Of a DNA stretch of 64,000 nucleotides, positions 30 to 64,000 are shown piece by piece. Origin of the DNA: Eremomyces bilateralis CBS 781.70 (Eukaryota); assembly GCA_010015585.1 (NCBI GenBank), contig ML975152.1; one strand, written 5' to 3'. The position numbers and the translations under genes were made by a program. The stretch's first letter is position 1; every line of letters begins with the position of its first letter. The notes beneath the pieces were generated by a model. The model saw only the letters and a list, made by a program, of their open reading frames with translations. It was not told the origin of the DNA and searched no databases.

Positions 30-2228
30 ATGGTATCTTTATCACCAACGCGTGCACAGGGAGAAATAACGCGGGCGTCGCCAGCTGCCGTCTACAAGAG
101 TTCAGAAACAGTTGGAGGTATCGACGACACTACAGAACTTGCTCGGGCTACCCTAGCAATAAATCGCGGCAAACATGGCCGTAAAGATTCTCAGGAGTTA
201 CTTCGAAGATTAGCAAATGCTACCAGCGGCACTCCGAGTCCACGGCCAAGACCAGAAGTCGAGAAATCACCGAATGAGTTGATGGCGGCTGGGAGAGAAG
301 CGCAAGATAACGCCAAATCTTTACCATCAGAGGATGAAAAGTTGGACGTGCCTCAGAATGATGACCGCGGCAGACGCTCACTTGATATTTTGAAGCCGAA
401 CACTGAGACGAATGACGACCGACAGAGCACAAACCGGCCATTCTCTCGTGCACGACGTACCCGTCCTGCACCCTTTAAGGACCTTGCATTCCAAGATCAC
501 GCCGAAGTTCTTGATGAGCTGCAAACAAACCCAGTCGGAGATGGTGCCTCGAAACCGCCAGGAAACGAAGCGCGGGAACCAAAGACCCCAGTAGTAACTG
601 GGGCATGGATCAACACCCCTGATCCAAAGATTTCCGCTTCTGTAAAGAGCTCCAGGTTCTCTTCGCCGCAGAAAGCGAAAGAGAAGAAAGTCAAAGAGAA
701 CGAACATCCCAAGGCGTCAAGAGAAATGCCTTCCGTATCTCCTCCGCGTCAGAAAGTTGGTGTTGACATCCAAAAATCTCCATCTCGGTCTAAGGGTCGG
801 ATATCCGAGCCGCCACCGCTCCCTCCCTCCGCACTCGCTCACATTCTTTCTACCTCTGGAAACAACTTTGGTGACTCAACCATTGATTCTCTGGAAGGAA
901 TACTCCACCCATCCGGCGACACCACCACTATCCCGGACCCAAACACAATACTTCTACCGGAGTCTGTCGATGATCCGGATGACCAACCCGTAGATGAGGA
1001 CGACACTCTGCAAGGTTTCCCAGAATCTTCTAGGGGCGTCCGAACTGATGCAGAACGCCGACGAAGAGCGGAATCATTTGCTTTGCGGGACATGAATTCG
1101 CGCCTACGACTCGCAAGACAGGGCATTCGCGATGCGAAGCGTGGGATTCGAGACCTGGAAAACAAAGTTGAGAAGTCGGCAACGCCAACAAGCCCACAGC
1201 CTACGGTACCGGCTACTAAAGGACCTGAAAAGCAGCCAAGGGGTAATCCATCGACTGTACCACCCGTCCCGCCGCTCTCGCACTGTCCTCATTGCAACAT
1301 GCCTATTCATGTTACTGCTCCATCAATACCGCTTTCATTCTCATCTATCGCCTCCTTCCTGTTCTCGCTCTTCTTTCTCCCGGCGCCTCCCACCTCTCGC
1401 CTCCCTTATCGACCGACCAGGCTCGGCTACGTCACGCTATTCATCGTCCTCTGGGCTATCATCGAGCAGAACCTATGCAACGCATACTGCCATCCGAGGT
1501 ACACCCACATTAAAACCACGCCACTCGGAATCGCCTCGGACGCACCGGAATTCCCCATTGTCACCCTTACCTTCATCTGGCGCGCCATCAGCCCTATCCT
1601 CCGTCCGTTCACTCCCATCTACGAAGACATCCTGTCCCCGATCCTCTCTCCCTTCTCCACCGTCGCCCTCATTCTTGCCCGTTCAATGTCAGGTATCCAT
1701 GGCCTCGGTGCGTGGGGTCGAGACGACTGGATGAGCGGGACCGGGGTTGACGCATATAGCTACGGGATGGGCTTCAGTCCACCCCCACCCACGGCGTGGA
1801 GCGAATGGTGGGCGCGGATGGGACCGAAGATCTGGGGTGACGAATGGAATGCGAGGGACGAGAGGATGTGGGCATGGTCAGAGGCGAACGGGAAGCGGAT
1901 TCAGGAGACGACCAGCGAAGGAAAGGGCAAGTTAGAGAAAGCGCCCCCGCTGCAAGAGGAGCGAGACCGGGTGGACAAGGAGACTACGAAACCGACGAGC
2001 CAGGTTCACTATCAGCCGGTGGAAGAGAAGGCTCAAGAGCCGGCTCCTGACCCCTGGAAGGATGAGACGGTCAATATATGGGAGTCGGCCAGCATATGGG
2101 AGAACGTGGCCGATAAGGGCGAGGAAAATACGAAGGGTGAAGGCGGATGGGGTGGTTGGTGGTCCTCGAAAAAGGTACCTGTTCATGACCCGGATGATGT
2201 GGGAATGGACCAGGATGAGGAACTCTGA
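30..2228 (+). CDS. Hypothetical protein (probably 5'-truncated by the window edge); low-complexity N-region, coiled coil, C-terminal hydrophobic segments
   Basis: 732-codon uninterrupted ORF. S/P-rich N-half, coiled coil (LRLARQGIRDAKRGIRDLENKV), CPHC motif and hydrophobic stretches (LGYVTLFIVLWAII...YCHPRY...APEFPIVTL). No family recognised with certainty. Confidence 0.7.
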   Translation: MVSLSPTRAQGEITRASPAAVYKSSETVGGIDDTTELARATLAINRGKHGRKDSQELLRRLANATSGTPSPRPRPEVEKSPNELMAAGREAQDNAKSLPSEDEKLDVPQNDDRGRRSLDILKPNTETNDDRQSTNRPFSRARRTRPAPFKDLAFQDHAEVLDELQTNPVGDGASKPPGNEAREPKTPVVTGAWINTPDPKISASVKSSRFSSPQKAKEKKVKENEHPKASREMPSVSPPRQKVGVDIQKSPSRSKGRISEPPPLPPSALAHILSTSGNNFGDSTIDSLEGILHPSGDTTTIPDPNTILLPESVDDPDDQPVDEDDTLQGFPESSRGVRTDAERRRRAESFALRDMNSRLRLARQGIRDAKRGIRDLENKVEKSATPTSPQPTVPATKGPEKQPRGNPSTVPPVPPLSHCPHCNMPIHVTAPSIPLSFSSIASFLFSLFFLPAPPTSRLPYRPTRLGYVTLFIVLWAIIEQNLCNAYCHPRYTHIKTTPLGIASDAPEFPIVTLTFIWRAISPILRPFTPIYEDILSPILSPFSTVALILARSMSGIHGLGAWGRDDWMSGTGVDAYSYGMGFSPPPPTAWSEWWARMGPKIWGDEWNARDERMWAWSEANGKRIQETTSEGKGKLEKAPPLQEERDRVDKETTKPTSQVHYQPVEEKAQEPAPDPWKDETVNIWESASIWENVADKGEENTKGEGGWGGWWSSKKVPVHDPDDVGMDQDEEL

Positions 2229-2663
2229 CCTTCCCGTACGCATCTGTGTTAACATTGTTCTGCGGTTTAGGTCTGGAACTGGGTATTGAATGCGAGCATG
2301 GCGTTGAGGGAGCATTTACTAGCGCTGCTCTCCCGGTTTTGGGGGTAGCATGCAGGGCATTTATATTGTATTGATTGCGAGCGTATGTTCGAGTTCGAAC
2401 GGTTGCGAATGACGCACATATCGATGCTATGGCGAGGGGACGGGACAGGATGACGTCCCATTCCGATATTTGGCATATTTCATGTCATACATCAATAGTC
2501 GAAATGCCACGAGAATTTAAGATATTCGTTTGGGTCTAATAATATATGGTATGCATGATGCATGCAGCAGGTATTGAAATGCTCTATGCTCGCTCATCAT
2601 GGCATTCATTTCGCCAATCATTCCCAGAAAACATGATAGAACCAGACCTCTAAATCGATGGTA

Positions 2664-5399
2664 TCAAGGACTCTCTGCCGCTATCTTTCTCCTTGCTTTG
2701 CTAACGCTCCTCGTGACCCGTGCCCGACTAGCCGCTCTTCTCAACCCGCCTATGACGCCTCTCTCCTCCCGTTCTTCCGTATCCACCAAACCAGGCACCA
2801 TCAACACACCGGCAGCGCTGGCGCTCCCCTTCAGCAACCGCCGCCGCCACCGTCGTCGCTCGTCGATGAGCTCTTGGTTCACGCTTCCGAACCCCTTCCG
2901 CTTCCAGCACGCCTCCATCAGCATGTTCACGTCGAGCATTTTCCGCGGCAGCGTCTGCACGACCTGGAACACTTCCATGGGGTCCTCGATGGCGCGGATG
3001 GACGGCTCCCCGAGCTTGAAGATGGCGAGGGACACGCGGAAGAGCGTCTTGCTGCCTTCATAGAAGAGGCTATCCCAGACTCGGAGCGTAGACTCGATGG
3101 GCAAGGTGCCGATGAAGAGCGACATGAACCACGGGGTGGTGGCGAGCGAGACGGTGGGAAGTCGAGGCTGGGCGGGGCCGAGTCCCGGCGCTCCCCGCTT
3201 ACCGGGAGCGGGATTGAGATCGGCGGGGTCGCCGTCGTCGATTCTGTTCCAGACAGCGGGGAGATGTTCGCGGAGGAGGTCCATGAGCACGCCGATGTCG
3301 ACGTTGGCTTCGAGGACGCGGGCGTGGGTGCCTGGGAGGTGGACGGATGTAATGACGTCGAGGAGGATAAACGCCTTTTCTTCGTCAGATTTGAGGAAGA
3401 GTAGGAGAAGCCCGGCGATGAAATTGAGGGATTGGCAATAACCGATTTGCGGGTTGTGCAGGGCGAAGGCGCGGAGAACGCGTCGGAGGGAATTGAGGAT
3501 TGGAGGGTCCGGAGGATCAGGCCATGACTCGGGAGACGACTCGGGAGATGAAAGGGGTGTGGTGGGAGGATCGGGCTTAAAGCTGATGTTGTCGGGGAAG
3601 GTTCGGTGTAGGTCGCGTTCGATATGTTCGCGGTCGGCATCATTGAGTCCGCCCTCATCTTCGGGTTTCTCGCATCGTCGAACCAATTCCCAATACACGC
3701 CTTGCATTCGAGCCAGTCGGCCGGGACCTCCGGCATACCAGAACCAGGCTGCTCCTCGCCACTCAGGAGGGATGCCTTTTCGAACATACCGCTTGACCTT
3801 CTCACTCTTAGGAGGAAATCGGATTGGATCGTCGGTCATCAGCCCGTATGCTCTCATGAGCGCATACCACTTCTTACGCCGTCGTTCGATGTATTGTGTG
3901 TAATTTGTATTCCATGCATCGTATTCGGCCTTCGAGATGTACTGATTCGACTTCTTGAACCCATATCGATCTCTAGGAACAGGGGCGGCTGGTCGAGGGT
4001 GGGTATTAGGATTAGGGTTAGGATTAGGATTTGAATTAAGATTAGGATTAGGAGTTGGATTCGGATTCGGATTCGGATCTCGGCTTTCAAAGATCTGAGC
4101 GGATGTCCGCACGATGTGAGCTGGTTCTTCCACAGGCGGTGCGAGGGTCGACTTTGCCTTGGGCTTTGGTGGAGTATCAAAGAGCGTGGTTCGACTAATG
4201 CTCTCCGCCGACCGAGCTTTCCTCAGCGGTGGTAACGTCTCGGGTTGAGATATCGGTAGTAGTCCTTCCGGAGACTGGGATGCACGTTCGAAGCGAGCAT
4301 TGTACAACGGTTGCGTATGGGCAATGTGTCTGTTATCATCTCCAGCGGGGATATCAGAATCGTCATTGAAACCATCCTCATACATCCCGATCGCATCTTC
4401 GACGCTCATATTAATGTCCTCCATGCCTGGAGGGACGTTGGAACGTCCGAAATCGCTCACAGATGTAGCCTTGGTCAAGACACTGCTCCTTTCCGTATCG
4501 GTCGTGTAATACCCGGACGATGTGTTCGTCCAAGCGGACCGGAAACTCGCTCTGACTTCCGATGGGCCATCTCTCCCTGTTTGTGGTTCTCTCCGTAAAG
4601 AAGATTGGTAGCTGTCTCTCACTGAACTGTATCCGTCGACCCGTTGCAACCCTGATCCCTCTCTTCTCATTCCAGCCCGGCTCAGGCTAAAATCTGGAAT
4701 GGAGGTCGAAGTGCGCAAGGAATGAAAGGAGGGTGGCGCCCTTGACGATGCGTTCGAAGAGAAGGTTTGGCCTCGGGCTCGTGTGGTAGATGGGCGGGGA
4801 GATTTGCTGGTTTCGCGTCGTCGGCCATTCTGGTCTCTTGCATTGGACCTAGACTGTCCATTGGACAGAGGTGACCGCCTCTCTCCTCTCAGCCGCGGAG
4901 AGTGCCCATTTCGAGTAATATCATCCCCCGACATGGCTGACGATACTGTCGGTGATTGCTGCGACGGTTTCGGAAGTTGGGAGTCATGGGGAGAAGGTGG
5001 TGAGAGGTCTGATCGGAATTTCGGACTGGACAGTTTGCTCGGTGAAGATATCGGAGTGATGGGCGATGATTCTGCGCTGCCAGACAACGGCGAAGTATTG
5101 GTGACCAGTTTGCTGTCTGTTTGTATCGATCGAATTGGGATCCTGTCCAGCTTTGGTACAGGGCTGTCCATCCTCTGAGAAGATTTTCGGTCCAAAGATA
5201 GATTCTCATGGGGTCGGGGAAGGCTCTCTGGCGTCTCAAGTTGAGGATCTGAATATTCCGATGGACGAGGTGCCCCATCAGTCATCGAGCTTTGCTGTGG
5301 GATTGCAGGCTGCAACACATTTGAGCCTAAGAAGTCGTCGAAGTCGAGAGCGGACTTGTCGATTTCAGGAAGGGACATCATCGTTGGATGATATTCCAT
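2664..5399 (-). CDS. TBC-domain Rab GTPase-activating protein (Gyp3/Msb3-like)
   Basis: 911-aa ORF with TBC motifs RKGIPPEWRGAAW, IERDLHRTFP (Arg finger), GYCQSLNFIAG (Gln finger) and LRVWDSLFYEG; long disordered N-terminus. Confidence 0.93.
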   Translation of the reverse strand: MEYHPTMMSLPEIDKSALDFDDFLGSNVLQPAIPQQSSMTDGAPRPSEYSDPQLETPESLPRPHENLSLDRKSSQRMDSPVPKLDRIPIRSIQTDSKLVTNTSPLSGSAESSPITPISSPSKLSSPKFRSDLSPPSPHDSQLPKPSQQSPTVSSAMSGDDITRNGHSPRLRGERRSPLSNGQSRSNARDQNGRRRETSKSPRPSTTRARGQTFSSNASSRAPPSFHSLRTSTSIPDFSLSRAGMRREGSGLQRVDGYSSVRDSYQSSLRREPQTGRDGPSEVRASFRSAWTNTSSGYYTTDTERSSVLTKATSVSDFGRSNVPPGMEDINMSVEDAIGMYEDGFNDDSDIPAGDDNRHIAHTQPLYNARFERASQSPEGLLPISQPETLPPLRKARSAESISRTTLFDTPPKPKAKSTLAPPVEEPAHIVRTSAQIFESRDPNPNPNPTPNPNLNSNPNPNPNPNTHPRPAAPVPRDRYGFKKSNQYISKAEYDAWNTNYTQYIERRRKKWYALMRAYGLMTDDPIRFPPKSEKVKRYVRKGIPPEWRGAAWFWYAGGPGRLARMQGVYWELVRRCEKPEDEGGLNDADREHIERDLHRTFPDNISFKPDPPTTPLSSPESSPESWPDPPDPPILNSLRRVLRAFALHNPQIGYCQSLNFIAGLLLLFLKSDEEKAFILLDVITSVHLPGTHARVLEANVDIGVLMDLLREHLPAVWNRIDDGDPADLNPAPGKRGAPGLGPAQPRLPTVSLATTPWFMSLFIGTLPIESTLRVWDSLFYEGSKTLFRVSLAIFKLGEPSIRAIEDPMEVFQVVQTLPRKMLDVNMLMEACWKRKGFGSVNQELIDERRRWRRRLLKGSASAAGVLMVPGLVDTEEREERGVIGGLRRAASRARVTRSVSKARRKIAAESP
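3999..4080 (-). repeat. Degenerate hexamer microsatellite encoding an (Asn-Pro)n tract inside the TBC gene
   Basis: GGATTA/GGATTC/GGGTTA units on the + strand translate in frame on the - strand as DPNPNPNPTPNPNLNSNPNPNPNPN. Confidence 0.85.
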
Positions 5400-42996: not shown

Positions 42997-43811
42997 ATTA
43001 TGTGATACATAGATAGAGCTCGCTGAGACGAAGAAGTAGATGTATAAAATATAAGGTTCAATAAAGGTTTGGTGATATTGTTGGGATTTGAAGACTTTAT
43101 GAATAAAATGGCCTCAAATCTACATCAGAGGCTGGGGACATTCCAGCTACTTGTGAACCCGGCTTATCAACAATTGAAAACAGCATTTATATATAATGAT
43201 ATATATATTAAATTATAGCTTTAAATGAAAGCAATCGATTAATGTATACTATATCAAAATTAAATAGATACTTGTAGAGTTATTGGTAGCAGAAGAAAAG
43301 ACCGCAAAAGCTGTATTCTGTTGCCCAGGGGAACAGACCATCAGCTGCATTACAACTTTACAAGTCGAAAATGAAAGATTTTCGACCGGACTCAACACAG
43401 ACTTCCTATATTAATATGAATGTCAAATTATAGCTCTAAATCAGGCGAGTATGAGAATGTAGGGCGCATATGGAATAGACGTGGTTCCGTAAAGATATGG
43501 TAGCTGGAAGCAATGTGGTTTCTGCATACAATAGATCCCTGCAGGTACGGGACAGATCTACCGCTTCAAAATAAATATGGCATCACGTGATATACTAACC
43601 TAATACGGCTAGCATATCATTAAACTAACTATTTTGGGCCTAGCTTATTTTAGGTAATTTTCAATTGAAATAAATGTTTATTTCAAGGTTTCAGAGTTTC
43701 TTAGGTAAGAAACGTTTATTTCATATATTATACCCACCCTAAACGTGAAACACCTCAAATCCTACCATCGTAACTCCACCTCCACCTTCCTAATTAGTAA
43801 TGAAAGCTTGG

Positions 43812-43847
43812 CATGAAATATTTCCAGGCCTCCGGAAATATTTCATG
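43812..43847. repeat. Perfect 14-bp inverted repeat with an 8-nt spacer
   Basis: CATGAAATATTTCC-AGGCCTCC-GGAAATATTTCATG, inside the putative outer miniature element. Confidence 0.85.
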
Positions 43848-44575
43848 AAAATTACAAGAACAATAGATTTCATTGAAAAATTTCACCCACCCTAGTGGCA
43901 GGCTTCGCGTCCTTTGGATTTGAATATTATTTACAATCAATTCCGCGTGGCGAGTAGTTCGGCCGCACAAGGCGTGGTACGGCCACCAGGCGGCCGGTGC
44001 GCGAAGGATATTACCGCGGAGATAGGATAATTGCACAAGAGTGTCACAGTCGTATTTTTCGTGCTTTGAGGCGTTGATGGATTGTTGCCTTATGGCCTGA
44101 TATGGATGCCTCACGATACGATTGGATGTGATGTGATGCCTCCGATGTGTTAGGGGTTATCACGTGGTGATTCACAATCCCGCTTTGTGTATATTATATC
44201 TCTCTCTCTGTTCTGGTTTCCCATTCTCCTTCTTTATCTTTCGTTTCGTCGAATACAAGCTGTTTTACGATAGTGATCCATATCCATGGTCCTCCAAAAT
44301 AGCACCGTGACAAAGAGCACGAATTAAGCATCGCTTTATCGGAGAGATTCTGCAAAGTGTCCGCAGTGCAGGACTAGGTCTCTACATGGCGGATATATTC
44401 TACTATGTGGCATTTTCAGTTCTGACAGCCTACAGCTGACACATGTTGAATACGGCAGTTGTGGCAACGCATATCCTTCCATAGCTGCAAGACAATTGCT
44501 TCAAAGGCGAGCGGAAAAGTACCCAGCGGCAAAGTACAGTACCGGTATCATCGACAAAAGCTACAGTGGAATTCA

Positions 44576-55589: not shown

Positions 55590-56400
55590 ATGGCGAAAGA
55601 CAGAACCGAAGATCCGGAGAAGAAGGAGAAGAAGAGCCGGAAGTCCATAGACGGCGTGTCCAAGTCGCACAAGAAGGAAAAGAAGGACAAGAAGGACAAG
55701 AAGGAGAAGAAGCAGAAGAACCGCGAGGAGCAGCCTACGTCGGATGCCGTCGCTGGTGCGGACGAAGATGTCGAGATGGGCGGCACCGGCGCTGCTGAGG
55801 TCGCGGTCAATGGCGAGGACGAGGTGGTAAAGCAGCTTGTGCCGTTCGCCGATCCGATGGCGACGGCGGAGGAGACCAAGAAGATCCTCGATGGCGTCAA
55901 ACGAGGTGAGTTGGACCTCTAATAAATTTTCCTACCGCGTTTCGACGGCAGCGCCTTTCGATGCGTAATATAACTAGGAGCTAACCATTTTCCATCCAGC
56001 CTCCCGCAACCGCGCCCTCCTCACCGGCATCAAGGAGACCCAAAAATCCCTCCGCCGCTCCTCCACCGCTGCGACGGCCGCGCCGCGCGGGATCCTCATC
56101 CTAGCCGCCGACACCTACCCGTGGGACATCATCTCGCACATGCCGGTGCTGTGCGAGGACCACAACACGCCGTACATCTTCGTGCGGAGCCGTGAGGAGC
56201 TGGGGCAGGCGGGTGGCAGTGTGCGGATGCAGACGAGCGCCATGATGGTGCTGGCGGAGAAGGGGGTGAAGAAGGCGGCGAAGGAGGGGGAGGCGGCGAA
56301 GGAGGCGGTGCCGGGGGAGCTGAGCGCGGAGGAGTATAAGAAGGCGTATGAGAAGCTGCTTAAGGTGGTGAACAAGGCGCAGGACCGGGTGAAGTTGTGA
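55590..56400 (+). CDS. NHP2: H/ACA snoRNP subunit Nhp2 (L7Ae family), divergent; intron 55906-55999
   Basis: Lys/Glu-rich N-terminus, LVPFADPMA, GIKETQKSLRRS and ILILAADTYPWDIISHMPVLCEDHNTPYIFVRSREELG. Confidence 0.85.
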
Positions 56401-56881
56401 GGTTGGGGAAGAGAGAAGTATAATTTCTCGCATGCGATGGCTTGACTGGTTTCGGGGACCAGATCATGGAGTCTGGTGGAGTGGGCGTTTGCTGTATTTG
56501 GTTTCTTGGGTTGGCATGTCCTGACGGTCGTGGTTCTCAATTGGTCGGGTTCGGACTTCATATACAAGGGCAGCGTGCGTGTATATAAGACATACGCAGG
56601 AGCACCCCGATGCCAACAACGGTGAATGCGAGGCAGAGCCGTATGTATGGTATCTCAATAGGGTATCGTAACTACCTAACTCCGGATTCCACCCTATTCC
56701 ATCATCGCCTGTTTGAACGTTGGTACATGAGTCTCGTAGGGAATGATAGCCTGTTACCCCAATGCACCGTCCGAGCCTGGTGTCCGGCACCTGATATCCT
56801 GCCCCAATCCAACCGTAGAAGTAGGAAATAAGTGCACCTAGAAACCCAAGAAACGCCTGCAAGTTGACCATTCGCTTCGGC

Positions 56882-57917
56882 TCATCCGTATCCCATCATC
56901 TCTGCAAACGGTTTCCTCTGCCTCAACTCCTTCTCCAAACTTTCCACACTCCCCAAATGCCTTGCCAACAGCCTCTGTTTCTCGTCTCGCCCTCGCACTG
57001 CACCCTTTTTCACTTCTCTTTCTCGATGTCGTGTCAATTCCTCCTCCAACGCCGACGCATCTCCCAAAGCCATGCTCCATCGCTGCTGCGGCGCCTCCAC
57101 GTCGTTACCCTTATCCCGCCCCGCTCCCCTTCTATGCGCATGTGCTCCCGTGCCAGGTGCGGATTGAGCGGCTTTTACGGCACTCGGATTACTATGCTCA
57201 TCACTCGATTCGGGATTGGTGGTCGGATTAATTTCGTCGAGAAGGTAGAAGTAGAGGAATTCGGCGACGCACTTGCGGACGTGGGGAGATGTCGAACGGG
57301 ATTTGTAGAGGGATGCGGCGGTGGCGAGGCCGTCGGTGCGTTCGAAGGAGCGAGCAGCACGAGGTGAGTATAGGAGAGCGGACATCAAAACCTGAAGGGT
57401 GGTCGATTGGGTCGAAGCGGGGTTTAGAGGGTCGAGTAGATCAAGTAAAAGCTAAGGCGACTGTTAGCGGCTCCGTATGTCGCAGAGGGTTCGGCTTGCG
57501 TACGTTGAGATAGATCTCCTCCTCAAAGATGCTTCGACTAGGTGGATGAAGCAGCAAGCATCCTTGCAGGAGTGTCAACGATGAGAGGATCAACAAGTCC
57601 GTCTCGGCCGATGTTCCCATGCCTAATAACCGCTCAAGGCACGCGACCAGTCGTGTTGCAACATTCCATTCGAAACGCTCTTGAAGGCGGAAGAATGCCC
57701 GAAATGCCGGGTCACCACCTAAACTCACGAGGGACTTCTCGTGTGACGGAGCGTCGGAGGATGTGGGGACTGTCGGTCGTTTGCTTGGTGAGGAGGAGGA
57801 AGAGGGAGAGAGGCAGATTTGCTCGAGGAAGCCTTTGATCTGGCGCAATCCCTTCGATATCTTCTGGGCGTCTTTGGAGGAGATGTAGTTGAAGGCGGTG
57901 GAGAGGAGGGCCTCCAT
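56882..57917 (-). CDS. cdc14: Septation initiation network protein Cdc14 (S. pombe Cdc14/SepM type, not the phosphatase), one intron
   Basis: MEALLSTAFNYISS...KGLRQIKGFL, DPAFRAFFRLQERFEWNVATRL, LQGCLLLHPPSR, YLN-LLLDLLDP, RSFERTDGL, EFLYFYL and EKQRLLARHLGSVESL. Confidence 0.9.
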
Positions 57918-58228
57918 TCTTGCTATGAGAGAGCGTCTCGAGTATCGGAAATAGTGTCACTATGAATGTGTTGATTAATTCCTGAGATAGTTGTTCAACT
58001 TGTCATTTTGATAGATATGTTCAAGTGGGGACATGATCAATCTGCATTGACTGAACTGCATTAGGTTAATGTGAGAATTCCTTTACAGTTTACTTGATGG
58101 CTTTCTGTTGGCGAAGCCTGTTGCTAGGCAACGCAGATCACAGATGAAGGATGAGCCGATAAGGCATGGAGAGAGTCACGTGCCAAATACATGCCCAGGG
58201 CACGTGAAAATTGGATTATATAATCATT

Positions 58229-58393
58229 AATCTCATCGAATCTCATCGAATCCCATTGAATCTCTCCGAATTCAACCCGTTTTTGAGTGAGGGTAGACAT
58301 ATGTCTTACTAAGACATGAAATCACGTGAATGTTAACTTCGATGCTTGAGCGAATCTCACCGAATGCTAACCGTTTTTAGAGAGGGTCAATGT
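58229..58393. repeat. Short 10-mer array plus a ~93-bp tandem duplication whose second copy is split by the transposon (it continues at 60422-60452)
   Basis: AATCTCATCG x2 plus degenerate copies. The unit GAATCTC.CCGAAT...CCGTTTTT..GAGGGT...ATGTCTTACTAAGA...ATCA.GTGA starts at 58258 and 58352; ATGTCTTACTAAGA occurs at 58301 and 60422. Confidence 0.75.
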
Positions 58394-58899
58394 TACCTCA
58401 GCAAGCTCAGGCTATTTCTCAGGGGAGTCTAACCTTTTTTGTAAAAGGTCACGTTACTTTAACTACTCCTCTGGTAAATAGCCTGAGGATTCTGTCAATG
58501 ACGCGCACTGCTCTGCATAAATTTTGTATGTGGTTTGTATGTATCTCTGCGGATTTGACAAAATCACGATCCATTAATAACCACATCAAAACACGTCGTA
58601 TGTACTCCAAAATCTGATCGATTGTGTATTAAAGTATGCTCTATCTTGTAATTGATTTTTTTTTACATGTCCATGCTTGTGTCGGGTGAAAAACGCTAAT
58701 ATGTGATGAACTAGACCACACCGAAATCACCATCCAGCCATCGTTCCGGAACTTACGGTCGAATGAGCCTGGAAAACACCCATTGGATGTCATATAATGC
58801 CTTTCTCGGTCGGTATTCACACGAATATCTATTATTGAACACATTTTGTGTTCATATTTCCCATGCGAAGCAAGGCGAGCGTTCGAAACGGGCGACGAG

Positions 58900-59235
58900 A
58901 GACTGTGGACATCGCCGGAGATCTCGTCCACGATGCCTATAGCACTACGAGTATGCTAGCTATATAGCGGCTGGTCGAAATTGCAAGAGACGTGCCCGAG
59001 GAAGTGCAGAAGGTCATCATCCGAGCAGGCCTAGACCGCCATCTCTACCCATTCGAGCCTCGTTAGAAGCAGATAGATGTTATATGGCATTTAGTATTCA
59101 AGTAGGAGGACCTTCCTCTTGTAGCGAAGATATCTTTTGGTAAAAATGTCATATTCCAGGCAATGCTATTGCTTTGTCGCGGTGGCATCGGCTTCATCCT
59201 TATCCCTTTGGATCGAATTAGACAGGAGTATATGG
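58900..59235 (+). pseudogene. RecQ-like superfamily 2 helicase, N-terminal remnant
   Basis: Reads LYPFEPR*KQIDVIWHLVFK*EDLPLVAKISFGKNVIFQAMLLLCRGGIGFILIPLDRIRQE: Q-motif region, degenerate Walker A and motif Ia. Stops are TAG (59064, 59103), consistent with CAG>TAG. Confidence 0.78.
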
Positions 59236-59289
59236 ACGGACCGTCCCCTAGTTATAATCGGTCGACGTCTATACTAAGAGGCGATAAGG

Positions 59290-60150
59290 ATGCCTTTGTT
59301 TATTCTGCCACGGTTTCGAGATATCTGTGGGCCCTCTTGTAGCCTTTATAAACCCCAAGCTGGTGAAGAATATCGAGGACACGCCGTTTCACACCATTTG
59401 AATGCAGAAAGGCGTCAAATACGCGGGGAAACCTATTGCTCCCTTCCGACCCCCGAGAATAGCAGAGAATTAACGTGACTATCGCAATCCTGTGGTTAAA
59501 CTTAACAGGATCCCGTGGTAGTCGATCTTTTCTCATCTTAGGTGTCATAAGACTATTAAGCAATCTACATAGAAGAGGAGCACGAGTGCTAACTTGCTCG
59601 TATATCTGCCTAGACAGTATGTCGCCTAGTATACACTCGTAGTCCTCGATTTTCTAACCCTCTAACTGTTTCCCCCTCCCTACGCCGGTAGGTAAAGTCT
59701 TCTCCTAGATGCAGTCGACTTAGTAGGCACTAAACATATCTACGGCTTCTTCTAGTGCCTTCATTTCCTTCCTTAGACCCTTTATAGTGATAGTTCCTGC
59801 CGCACTAGACGCGGGATTCTTATAGTGCGTCTAAGACCTCTGGGCTCTGGCTAACCGTAGACAGCCTCAGCGAGCTATTTGGCTCGCGTGACAGAGCACT
59901 CTCTATAACCACCCAACCCTTAAGTCGTCGCGTAGATGTAGATAAATTCTCAAAATTTAATGCTCTTTTTCTTCATGAATTGACATATCTCATTTATTCT
60001 CTGTGCCTTACTGCGTCTTTGAGACCCTCTTACTTTCTGATGTGGTGCATTAGATGTGTTTGACGCAGCACTATGCTGAGGACTTGGAGCAAGTAGCAAA
60101 GTGGGCGAGTTCAACCGCGCGCTCTGACGACGCTGGTTTCAGGCCGACAC
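59290..60150 (-). pseudogene. Putative transposase N-terminal remnant with many stop codons
   Basis: Reads ...RINEICQFMKKKSIKF*EFIYIYA...KGLRKEMKALEE...STRAPLLCRLLNSLM...LCYSR...FLHSNGVKRRVLDILHQLGVYKGY. It resembles from memory the N-region of DUF6589/Academ-type transposases. Multiple TAG/TAA stops and at least one frameshift. Confidence 0.6.
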
Positions 60151-61034
60151 GACCCAAAATTCAATCAATTATGGAGAAAAAGCAGGGGAATCGAATGGTT
60201 ATATTTAATTGACGGAGCACAGTGTGGTTGTGGATGAAAATGGAGTTAAAAATGGTCTTCCATTTGGTATGAAAGCTCTCCACACACACCCAAAACCCAT
60301 TGACAGAATCCTCAGGCTATTTGTTCGAGGAGTGCATGTGACTTACCGATTAGGTATAGTCCCACTCCGGTGCCTTGGCACGACCACAAATAGCCTGAGC
60401 TTGCTGAGGTAAGGTCAATGTATGTCTTACTAAGAAATGTGATCATGTGATATTCACAAGCTTGTATGAGTTGTACTCCATCTTCACCACAGTCAGCGAG
60501 TGACCAGACGGACATCGTCACATGTGCATGGATCGTTAGTTTACTACCCCGTACCAGGTGGCACTTGAACTTGCTTCTAAACCTGGAGCCTTGCGACTTG
60601 CGACTGGCGCCAGTCCGCCATGACGATAAATCCTCGCTGCCAACCAACTTGACCGATAATCAACTCCTCCGGACTTCTCTGCCTCTTGTATATGCTGCTC
60701 GGTCCATCTTCCATCTCATATCACCAACCTAGTTATTGTTTCCCCGTGCTTCCCGCTGTACCCGTACTGCTGTTATCTATCCTTACCTATCCACATACTC
60801 GGCTGATATCAGATCGGCTGTCAGACCTGCAGGTCCGGCTCGTGATATCCGGGTGACACTGTTCCGTGTAACTTGTAACAGCCGGTCTATCGAAGAGACC
60901 CGCTAACACTCAAGATCCCTCCGTGTCTGTGTTGAGCCTGCCGTCATAGGCCAACACGAACAAAGACTCGTTGATTGCCCACATCACACACCCGAAACCT
61001 CCTTCCCGTACAAAACCCCTCTCGTCTTTCCACG

Positions 61035-62448
61035 ATGACCAGCGCTACCACGAGTCCCGAGCCCTTTCGCATCCCCTCCTCCATCCCTCCTCGAACAAGT
61101 TCTCACCGCCCCACCCTTTCCAACGGTCTCTCGCCAGCCTCTCCTCCGCGATCCACAAGCACCCCCAAACCACTCATCTCCGAATCAGACTGGATGAGTT
61201 CGTCACTTCAGGCTAACATAGCCCAAGGGAAAGCACCTGCGTATCCTCCGCAGACCTTCTCCTCATTTCCGTCGAAGACGGCTCAAGTACCCGGAGTCCA
61301 TTTGCAAAAGTCCGCCATGTCGCCGAGCGGTCCAGCAAGCGGCGGGGCAGAGATCGGCGTCCCCCCGAGGAACCCAAGAAGAAACGAAGAGGGGCGAGAT
61401 GAAAGCTCGGGATTGCCTCAGGCGGTATGGAACGATTCGAAGGAGAGCATCCTCTTGGCCCCGTATGAGTACATGTTCGGTCATCCAGGGAAAGACATCC
61501 GGACGCAGTTGATTGCTGCGTTCAATCTATGGTTGGATGTGCCAGAGAAAAGCCTAGAAGTCATCACCAAGGTAGTCGGGATGTTACACACCGCCAGCTT
61601 GCTGTAAGTCAAAATGTCAAGATACGAGGTACACAGGCTCATATTGATGGCATGGAACAGAGTGGACGACGTAGAAGACGCATCCTTATTGCGTCGTGGG
61701 GTACCCGTCGCCCATTCGATATTCGGCACGGCGCAAACGATCAACTCCGCAAACTACATCTACTTTCAAGCTCTCAAGGAACTGTCCGCGCTGAAGTCAC
61801 CGAAAGCCATCGAAATCTTTACGGACGAGCTCCTCAATCTCCACCGTGGGCAAGGCATGGACCTCTTCTGGCGCGACACCCTGACCTGCCCAACCGAAGC
61901 CGATTATTTGGAAATGGTCGGAAACAAGACGGGGGGGCTATTTCGGCTAGCGATCAAACTGATGCAGGCGGAATCCAGCATAGACATGTTCGTCCTTTCC
62001 CCTCGATCCCCGCATAGCATCCAGCTAACTTCCACGTAGTGACTGTACCCCTCTCGTCTCCACCATGGGCACCCTCTTCCAAATCCTCGACGACCACCTC
62101 AACCTCTCCTCCCAATCCTACTCCGTCCGCAAAGGCCACTGCGAAGACCTCACCGAGGGCAAGTTCTCCTTCCCCGTCATCCACGCCATCCGCGCCGACC
62201 CCCGCGACCTGGTGCTCGTCTCCATCCTGCGCCAGAAAACCAACGACGACGAGGTCAAGAAGTTCGCCGTGCGCTACATGGAGGGGAAGGGCAGTTTTCA
62301 GTATACAAGAGAGGTCATGGAGGGGTTGCGGGCGCGCGCGGTCGAGATGGTGGGCGCGTTGGTGGAGAAGGTGGATGGGTTCCGGGGACAGGGACAGCTG
62401 GGTGGGCAAGAGGTCATGGCAATCTTGGCGAGGATGAATGTCGACTGA
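61035..62448 (+). CDS. Geranylgeranyl pyrophosphate synthase (Al-3/Bts1 type), two introns
   Basis: [24 protein letters not shown] (first Asp-rich motif), [34 protein letters not shown] (second motif) and [20 protein letters not shown]. Confidence 0.96.
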
Positions 62449-62882
62449 TTCGTTCGATATATTTATTGCTTCGTTTCTATGGATGGGGAACAGCGGGCCT
62501 GGTTGGTTTTTTTGACATTCAGGTCTGCGTTGCATCGGTAGGCGTCCGGTTCGAACTCTGCGGAATCCGCGCCAGGATTTCGCTTGGGAAGAGAGGGGGA
62601 GAAATTGTGCGACGCCAAGGCCTCACTCGGGGTATTTATCCAGAAATATTTTGTAATCTAATTGATAGTAACTTCGAATCACGCAAATACCATGGCAGGC
62701 CATTCATCAGGGGTATCTACGCTCGGGAGAATGGATGCCAAACACCCGCATATATAAGAAACAACTTTGGATTTCGCTTTCATGTCACAGGTCATGCCTA
62801 CCCACGTCCGTCTCTCATGCAAACGCCCAACCCAATGCTAAGTCCCAACCCAAACAAACAAAACGCTCCCATCCGATCCTCC

Positions 62883-64000
62883 TCACCCCCCGCCCCGCTG
62901 CGCCAACAGTCCCGCCAGCGCGCCTAGCACCTCGCCCACATCCTCCTTCCCCCCGGCCGCCGCCCTGCCGTTCCGATCCCGCGCCTCCAAGAACTCCGCC
63001 GCCGTGCCGAGCACGCGGTCGGCCATGCGTTCGGCGGCGAGGCGGTACTGCTCGATGCGGTGGACGCCGTCGGCGAGGGTGTCGATGGAGGGTTCGAGGG
63101 AGTCGAGGAGAGGCTGGAGGCGGGATTCGAGGGCTGCTTTCGCGGTTTGGGGATGCGGTGATGGGGCGCGGGGGGGCTGGTCGTTGGAGGGGGGTGGTTG
63201 GGGGGTAGGTAGTAGAAGGGGTGGGTGGAGGATGGAGTTGAAGATGGTGGATTGTTCCGGGTCGTCGAGGAGGTCGGGGTGGATGGGGGAGGGGGGAGTC
63301 GATGTGGAGGGGTCGAAGGCCGGGATCGGGGGGAGCACGGAGGAAAGGGTTTCCCATGATTTCTTCTCCGCTTGGAGCCTAGCATTACTAGATTAGATGG
63401 ACGTTTCCGGGTGAAGATCGTGGCTAAGCGTTACCTTTCAATATCTTGCTCGAGCTCTTTCAGCTTTTCAACCATCTGAGCATTGCGCGGATTTGGTTTT
63501 TTAACTACTACTGCCGGCGCGATCTCTTCCTATAATATGGTCAGCCGAATAATTCGCCCATCAGCTACACGTCGACCTACCCTACTAAACCAATCCGATA
63601 TTTCCGGATTGTTCGCGAAGTCTTTCAGCAGCTCGGCCTGGATGTGACGTGCTACGCATTCCGTTAGCTCTATTGATTCTGCGCTCCGTTATGATTTCTC
63701 GGGTACTCGGGACTTACCAGCTTCGAGCGCTAGGACAGCGTTGGCATCGCCATTGCCGTTGGGTTTCTCTGGTATAGCTCGTGCTCCACACCACGTCAAA
63801 AGTTGGAGCATCCGTTTTGGCTCTAGGATGTTCTGGTCGATGTGTTTGTAGAACTCGAGGATCTCGACGTCGGCGTGTGGTACAGCTAGATAGAGTTCCA
63901 CGTCAGTATAATCCATTGACGAACAAAGTTGGGTAACCAGCTTTGATCTTTCCTCGACAGACAGGTCGCAGACTTGTCTAGACGCTGGTTCGATGACAGC
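62883..64000 (-). CDS. DSN1: Kinetochore Mis12-complex subunit Dsn1/Mis13, 3' part (5' end lies beyond the window), multi-exon
   Basis: Exons give VPHADVEILEFYKHID...EPKRMLQLLTWCGARA, ARHIQAELLKDF....EISDWFSR, KKPNPRN..., and LEPSIDTLADGVHRIEQYR. Confidence 0.85.

Follow-up and report, generated by a model that had tools for sequence, protein, structure and literature searches.

Structure and insertion site of the element

The window analysed here is a 64,000-nt stretch of contig ML975152.1 from the Eremomyces bilateralis CBS 781.70 assembly (GCA_010015585.1), and it carries a 2020-bp DNA transposon copy from position 58393 to 60412. The copy lies in a 3.1-kb divergent intergenic region. On its left is a cdc14-like gene on the minus strand (ATG at 57917; PF08045, a component of the septation initiation network, SIN), and on its right a polyprenyl synthase gene (polyprenyl synthetase, geranylgeranyl diphosphate (GGPP) type; start at 61035). 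The element ends 476 bp from the start codon on the Cdc14 side and 623 bp from that on the polyprenyl synthase side, in agreement with the ascomycete promoter that an initial annotation, made from the letters alone, had proposed as the insertion site. The fragment of Cdc14 encoded in the window matched the protein of Eremomyces bilateralis CBS 781.70 at 99% identity, the next best matches being at 58–62%.

A pair of terminal inverted repeats (TIRs) of 25 nt bounds the copy, the left one at 58393–58417 (plus strand) and the right one at 60388–60412 (minus strand). They are 100% complementary, so that the 2.0-kb segment with perfect TIRs described in the initial annotation is indeed present. The left TIR opens with the family-wide terminus TTACCTCAG, which was kept in the related loci where a terminus was found, the right end reading ...CTGAGGTAA. 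When the 25-mer was searched with up to three mismatches, the two TIRs were the only sites in the window, and two matches were obtained in none of 100 shuffles; such a pair would hardly arise by chance. Further inside, the core of the TIR recurs in inverted orientation (AAATAGCCTGAG...) at 58465–58500, and the partner of this repeat at 60298–60333 forms the right subterminal repeat (36 nt, 89% identity between the two). The motif GCCTGAG...TGTC was invariant at the subterminal distance in all eight aligned ends. Both ends of the window copy, with their subterminal repeats, were intact. The G+C content within the element was 0.43–0.46, below that of most of the window, and the TpA/ApT ratio was 0.94, compared to 0.47–0.77 when the window was divided into bins of 4 kb. 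The lowest G+C bin of the window is located elsewhere, at 43001–44000 (0.376 versus approximately 0.5 in the rest).

The element is flanked by a target-site duplication (TSD) of 8 bp, GGTCAATG, at 58385–58392 and 60413–60420. A duplication of 9 or 10 bp had been proposed initially, and the 9-bp direct repeat GGTCAATGT does literally occur at 58385–58393 and 60413–60421. The final T of its left copy corresponds to the first base of the TIR, which is conserved as the first base of TTACCTCAG in the relatives, where the base preceding TTACCTCAG and the base following ...CTGAGGTAA are both variable. Since this T belongs to the TIR, the TSD is 8 bp long and the insertion amounts to 2020 + 8 bp. With the termini set at TTACC...GGTAA, the flanks showed no mismatch over 8 bp, six over 9 bp and eight over 10 bp. 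A 9-bp TSD was rejected on account of these six mismatches, as was a 10-bp TSD, which would require a mismatch and shortened TIRs.

The insertion site is located within local repeats. A 10-bp-spaced motif (CGAATCTCATCGAAT-like) occurs five times at positions 58227–58365. A segment of approximately 46 nt at 58284–58329, about 100 bp upstream of the insertion, is 76% identical to 60405–60450; by eye, the spacing of this repeat equals that of the site minus 2028 bp, which fits any TSD length alike.

Full-length relatives and internal deletion

Relatives were sought by scanning metagenome contigs with a helicase alignment, which gave 322 pattern matches, of which 87 were confirmed and 80 loci kept. 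Two loci from soil, L001 and L002, contained intact elements between TTACCTCAG...CTGAGGTAA termini, with sizes of 6289 bp (in a contig of 6418 bp) and 6300 bp (in a contig of 6435 bp), respectively. On the plus strand, a helicase open reading frame (ORF) with DEAD and Helicase_C domains encodes 935 amino acids (aa) in L002 and 933 aa in L001. The minus-strand gene occupies two frames, the first encoding 297 or 294 aa and being without a match in Pfam, and the second encoding 540 aa with a DUF6589 domain (E 2.5e-68). The helicase and DUF6589 genes are convergent in both elements.

The window copy aligned by blastn with both ends of L002: window 58466–59228 corresponded to L002 215–997 (69.5% identity) and window 59230–60412 to L002 5254–6433 (73.8% identity). 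The collinearity of the two halves with the ends of one L002 element shows that the window copy is a single element with a single internal deletion. At the junction, at 59228–59230, the 4256 bp of L002 positions 998–5253 are missing, with a microhomology of approximately 2 bp. The initial annotation had recognised an internal deletion joining two convergent gene remnants and had placed it near 59240–59300; the deletion is real and its position is to be corrected. Helicase codon 122 and the beginning of the DUF6589 part delimit the lost region. As both termini are kept, a single gap separates the copy from L002 and no intact ORF is left, the element has the structure of a deletion derivative of a family encoding a helicase and a transposase, as had been proposed. 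The remaining coding sequence cannot encode a protein. A second copy of the element was not found within the window.

Helicase 5' parts abutting parts of the transposase gene were also observed in the metagenome contigs L056, L058, L065 and L079, and L066 was a 1595-bp element with only a scrap of the helicase. From these layouts, independent deletion derivatives with the design of the window copy are recurrent. Ds, which derives from Ac, is an example of a non-autonomous derivative produced by internal deletion. The design is the same here (termini kept, coding middle lost, presumed mobilisation in trans), and no specific difference from this type was noted.

The helicase gene and its association with DUF6589

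The RecQ-like helicase 5' remnant reported on the plus strand was confirmed at 58863–59228, from the start codon to codon 122, by tblastn with residues 1–122 of the L002 helicase. Three in-frame stops (codons 35, 68 and 81) interrupt it and the Walker A motif reads GKN in place of GKS. Ninety-nine of 122 residues (81%) were identical to residues 1–122 of P0004, an Eremomyces bilateralis protein of 826 aa named "ATP-dependent DNA helicase". The protein search with this remnant retained 28 proteins at E ≤ 0.001 among 266 candidates, the named ones all being from Pezizomycotina, and 26 of the 28 possessed both the DEAD and Helicase_C domains. A profile built from 21 of these proteins (alignment A1) matched, among Protein Data Bank (PDB) sequences, RECQ1 (best, E 1.7e-16), WRN, RecQ, RECQ5 and BLM, and the RecQ-like label is therefore right.

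The 2.0-kb segment could alternatively not be one element, the mere look of its two gene fragments being that of chance neighbours (a piece of a host helicase and a piece of a transposase) or of a helicase captured privately by this copy. Nothing further speaks for such an origin, which we consider extremely improbable in view of three observations. The halves are collinear with both ends of single 6.3-kb elements; the helicase starts at approximately 470–500 bp from the left terminus in the window copy as well as in L001 and L002; and the two genes travel together. Indeed, a DUF6589 match was detected by tblastn in 22 of the 80 helicase loci, on the opposite strand and downstream of the helicase in 21 of them, the exception to this convergent order being L024, and in most of the other 58 loci the contig ends too early to show the pairing. 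The association spans helicase identities from 100% down to 26%. Such pairing in 21/22 loci argues that the helicase is a core gene of the family, and not the captured host gene which the initial annotation had considered as an alternative.

The transposase gene and its DUF6589 domain

The transposase-like 5' remnant on the minus strand belongs to a DUF6589 protein, as had been guessed. It covers 59261–60150, the counterpart of L002 product residues 1–297, which precede DUF6589. Next to it, a short stretch at 59231–59260 (minus strand; L002 5254–5284) matches the frame-break region described below together with the codons at the beginning of the part that bears DUF6589. The remnant was recovered by tblastn in two frames, residues 1–102 at 60150–59845 and residues 109–297 at 59821–59261, which indicates a frameshift between 59821 and 59845 on top of the stops. 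Twelve stops were counted in a 273-codon read-through of one of the frames, and the start codon, read by eye, is lost.

A search of 1.84 billion representatives with the read-through of 59240–60058, with an X at the stops, gave 141 proteins at E ≤ 0.001. P0032 ranked first (61% identity, E 5e-56) and nearly all the matches were short; with P0176, the identity of the remnant was 65%. When 14 of the matched proteins were compared to Pfam, a domain, DUF6589 (PF20231), was present only in P0130 (945 aa) and P0079, and the window remnant aligned upstream of this domain. A Pfam comparison of the raw ORF fragments, seven in the element, gave nothing useful. The named proteins of Eremomyces include, in addition to the 826-aa helicase P0004, two DUF6589 proteins of 735 and 364 aa.

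In the window copy, L001, L002, P0032 and P0034, the transposase gene is broken into two frames by a stop located right after a conserved "...DVD" (L002 5167–5284, L001 5150–5267, window 59231–59270). The NCBI models of the relatives P0176 and P0177 are spliced around this point, and the distant homologue P0204 is continuous there. The break may correspond to a frameshift or to a short intron, for which no convincing splice pair was found by eye.

An AlphaFold2 (AF2) model of the DUF6589 part of L002 (alignment A2, 30 sequences) was obtained with a pLDDT of 80.4 and a pTM of 0.83. Its topology is strand-strand-strand-helix-strand-helix-strand, followed by a long helical insertion and then by a helix with an invariant D and an invariant E, so that the DUF6589 domain is predicted to adopt the fold of a DDE transposase. 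In a structural comparison made independently of Foldseek, long alignments were observed with the P element transposase and with Hermes, at 7–8% sequence identity, and the scores were lower for ISCth4, Tn5, MuA, RAG1 and Transib. The DUF6589 profile matched no transposase among the PDB sequences, and a search of the ESM Atlas returned no usable match outside PF20231.

Copies in the same genome

Two sequencing runs of one sample (X1 and X2, organism A) shared 0.82–0.83 of the words of the window, and their contigs were aligned with positions 56000–63000. In both runs, the long unique contigs end at 58421 and resume at 60386. The X1 depth was 160 in the flanks and 950–1380 in the unitigs of the element. 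A 320-bp unitig spanning the deletion junction (59034–59351) had a depth of 1045, with five differences and two gaps, and one contig extended beyond 59228 by 30 letters which, read by eye, encode residues 123–132 of P0004. The excess of depth over the flanks, the junction unitig and the contig reading on indicate together a multi-copy family, comprising siblings with the same deletion and undeleted copies. Longer copies, in line with the initial suggestion that autonomous ones may occur elsewhere in the genome, do exist, and the named 826-aa helicase and 735-aa DUF6589 protein point in the same direction.

The window had A/T where the X1 contigs had G/C at 115 sites, and G/C where they had A/T at 51 sites, most of the differences being transitions. 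The excess of A/T suggests a decay from G:C to A:T, which would be similar to repeat-induced point mutation (RIP) or due to deamination.

In run X2, contigs at approximately single-copy depth (194–241) join window position 60412 to 58392/58393 with seven other letters in between, and these terminus-to-terminus records are reverse complements of each other. They could represent two abutting genomic copies or a form of the element with joined ends. In run X3 (organism B), pieces of the element were found on 58393–60219 with 0–4 differences and a depth of 5–7, with no flanks; they may come from the same fungus, present at a low level, or from a second host. Run X4, which bears the species label of X1 and is coded organism C, gave contigs less than 90% alike on the flanks and left 57917–61058 uncovered. 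A contig joining across the element, which would represent the empty site, was not seen in these runs, X4 being uninformative either way as it leaves the site uncovered.

Comparison with Academ and other superfamilies

The DUF6589 domain was compared with the RNase_H_Academ profile (465 positions, 44 sequences), available in the supplement of PMC5751038, a part of whose consensus was used. The strongly conserved positions of the profile are D3-N4-x-D6 (DN[wf]D in the consensus), an h-v-t-n-g stretch at 22–26, g-d-q (190–192), W214-l-v-P-x4-f-H223 and S430...W444...D450-x3-E454 (PMC5751038). The DUF6589 proteins show, in the same order, YDNF[DE], HSVTTG, GDQKT, W.LPVPALFH, ILS...W and D...E. 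The distance from W to H is 9 in both, the distance from D to E is 4 in both, and 157 residues separate the first D from the second compared to 188 positions in the profile. D3, N4, D6, H223, D450 and E454 were all matched. With four hand-placed blocks and the emission costs of the profile, the L002 type scored 44.6 bits and the P0204 type 41.7 bits.

On this motif comparison by eye, we read DUF6589 as an RNase H-like (DDE) domain of Academ type and accordingly call the family AcademH-like; the initial annotation had arrived at the same placement, to which the order of the catalytic motifs and the rough block score now add support. The window copy is thus likely to be a decayed, non-autonomous copy of a cut-and-paste transposon of approximately 6.3 kb, AcademH-like and encoding a RecQ-like superfamily-2 helicase and a DUF6589 transposase of approximately 830 aa. 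AcademH elements, to which the family is likened by their published description only, share with it the TIRs, present in the window copy, the combination of a DDE transposase with a superfamily-2 helicase, and the occurrence in fungi including Ascomycota. Their TSDs differ, being of 9 or 10 bp (PMC10045372) compared to 8–9 bp here. AcademX elements would share the transposase superfamily, provided that the Academ link is right; they encode a nuclease and no helicase and produce TSDs of 3–4 bp (PMC10045372), in contrast to the helicase and the 8–9-bp TSDs of the present family.

The TSDs of the lineage were searched for in the loci with paired termini, at lengths of 7–11 bp with at most one mismatch. 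Eight loci had a matched pair of termini and two of them a TSD, of 8 bp in L020 (a 6191-bp element) and of 9 bp in L066; together with the 8 bp of the window copy, three TSDs are available. In L002, the right flank of 2 nt is too short. No clear termini emerged when L008, L024, L069, L075 and L076, which are distant loci, were scanned for inverted repeats.

Several observations weigh against an AcademH-like element decayed by mutation. The TSDs of 8, 8 and 9 bp do not reproduce the 9–10 bp reported for AcademH, a characteristic by which homology is not defined, and the argument drawn initially from a 9–10-bp duplication is lost. With three TSDs, this result weakens the claim that the family is an AcademH and leaves intact the claim that it functions in the same manner. 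Five loci (L001, L012, L014, L021 and L028) were without a TSD of 7–11 bp at one mismatch or fewer; we assume that chimeric assembly of repeats is responsible. The Academ link itself comes from a consensus read by eye and a cherry-picked block score, as opposed to a scored search. The close family differs at two motif residues (RSVTTG and WLIGVAALFH, i.e., H to R and P to G), and the strict collinear pattern occurred in three of the 30 DUF6589 proteins of the alignment, a set with many fragments (and in none of 148 controls). Foldseek detected no match of the DUF6589 model in the PDB at E ≤ 0.001, its top six rows being the hAT transposase Hermes with E-values of 0.02–0.09. To our knowledge, no Academ structure has been solved, so that the fold cannot tell the superfamilies apart. 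Concerning the decay, the RIP indices were borderline (TpA/ApT 0.94, (CpA+TpG)/(ApC+GpT) 1.07) and the few differing sites checked by eye were not mainly CpA. Finally, the sibling copies with the same junction amount to approximately 6–7 times the flank depth, and contig depth ratios are rough copy numbers only.

The same observations bear on two other placements. The element might belong to another known superfamily with 8–9-bp TSDs (hAT or Mutator-like) in which a helicase was acquired. A length of 8 bp, which is that of hAT, in two of the three TSDs, the six best Foldseek rows and the long structural alignments with the P element and Hermes would be in line with this origin, which nevertheless appears quite improbable to us. 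The Foldseek E-values were non-significant, the profile search of PDB sequences found no transposase, and the three full proteins compared to Pfam at E ≤ 10 matched DUF6589 alone, with no hAT dimerisation, BED, MULE (Mutator-like element) or Transposase_mut domain; the hAT or MULE match which the initial annotation had named as fatal to its reading was thus not obtained in these searches. In Pfam and PDB searches, the family showed no sequence similarity to hAT (Hermes, PDB 2bw3 and 8edg) or to the P element transposase (6p5a), and the hAT and P elements are not known to carry a helicase gene. The CAG or TAG start known from hAT termini is absent from those of the present element. The order and spacing of the motifs, in the part of the consensus used, suit the Academ profile.

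We also hold it unlikely that the elements with a helicase and DUF6589 constitute a superfamily of their own, distantly Academ-like, with a motif likeness common to many DDE transposases. TSD lengths outside the reported AcademH range would agree with a separate superfamily, as would an Academ link that is not a scored test, with short GDQ-like and D...E motifs. Against it stand the five motifs in a common order with identical W-to-H (9) and D-to-E (4) spacing, the match of all the strongly conserved positions in the excerpted consensus with blocks of approximately 42–45 bits, and the presence of a helicase and a transposase inside TIRs, which is the architecture reported for AcademH. The AcademH-like reading of the window copy is the one retained in the model below.

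Proposed model of deletion and mobilisation

In the model that we propose, the deletion would stem from a faulty repair event using the microhomology of approximately 2 bp. The shortened element would afterwards have been moved and multiplied by the transposase provided in trans by full-length copies. At each end of the element, the transposase would bind both the terminal and the inverted subterminal motif; it would then excise the element, and insertion would proceed by cuts staggered by 8–9 bp. The helicase may unwind the DNA at the element ends or during gap repair, which is a guess.

Possible horizontal spread and significance

Identity between the proteins of Eremomyces (Dothideomycetes) and those of Sordariomycetes and Leotiomycetes was 79–87% for DUF6589 and 67–81% for the helicase (P0176, P0177, P0178 and P0182; P0004, P0019 and P0013). 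Host Cdc14 (P0220), the one host gene compared, was 40–44% identical between the same classes. From these sequence comparisons, the high identity of the element proteins across fungal classes suggests horizontal transfer. We tentatively raise the possibility, with more doubt than confidence, that the window copy belongs to a so far undescribed lineage of Academ-type, helicase-encoding transposons in Pezizomycotina, with TTACCTCAG...CTGAGGTAA termini, 8–9-bp TSDs, recent horizontal moves between fungal classes, and DUF6589 as its transposase. A description of this transposon family was not found in the literature that was searched.

The Academ domain matched no Pfam family in 2017, and Academ elements are low-copy in most fungal taxa and abundant in Pucciniomycotina (PMC5751038). 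The full-text literature search for DUF6589 returned a single preprint (bioRxiv 10.1101/2025.10.24.684071), in which DUF6589 is among the domains enriched in rust fungi, with a suggested role as a virulence factor or in epigenetic or other regulation. DUF6589 as a transposase would fit the abundance of Academ in Pucciniomycotina. AcademH elements are listed as low-copy in Basidiomycota, Ascomycota and Mucoromycota (PMC10799480, citing Kojima 2020), and the initial view that ascomycete examples are unusual does not hold. The window copy represents, as a non-autonomous member of the ordinary kind, a known and little-studied transposon group and, as helicase-encoding Academ elements have already been reported from ascomycetes, it is a clean example and not a surprise.

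A dead and shortened intergenic copy has little weight by itself. DUF6589 gains from it a working annotation as an Academ-type DDE transposase, and the resolved example of the family, with its 6.3-kb relatives, termini, subterminal repeats and recurrent deletion route, could seed repeat libraries for Dothideomycetes. If confirmed, the 8–9-bp TSDs and the identity across classes would make the description of AcademH slightly wider and add one more case of horizontal transposon transfer.

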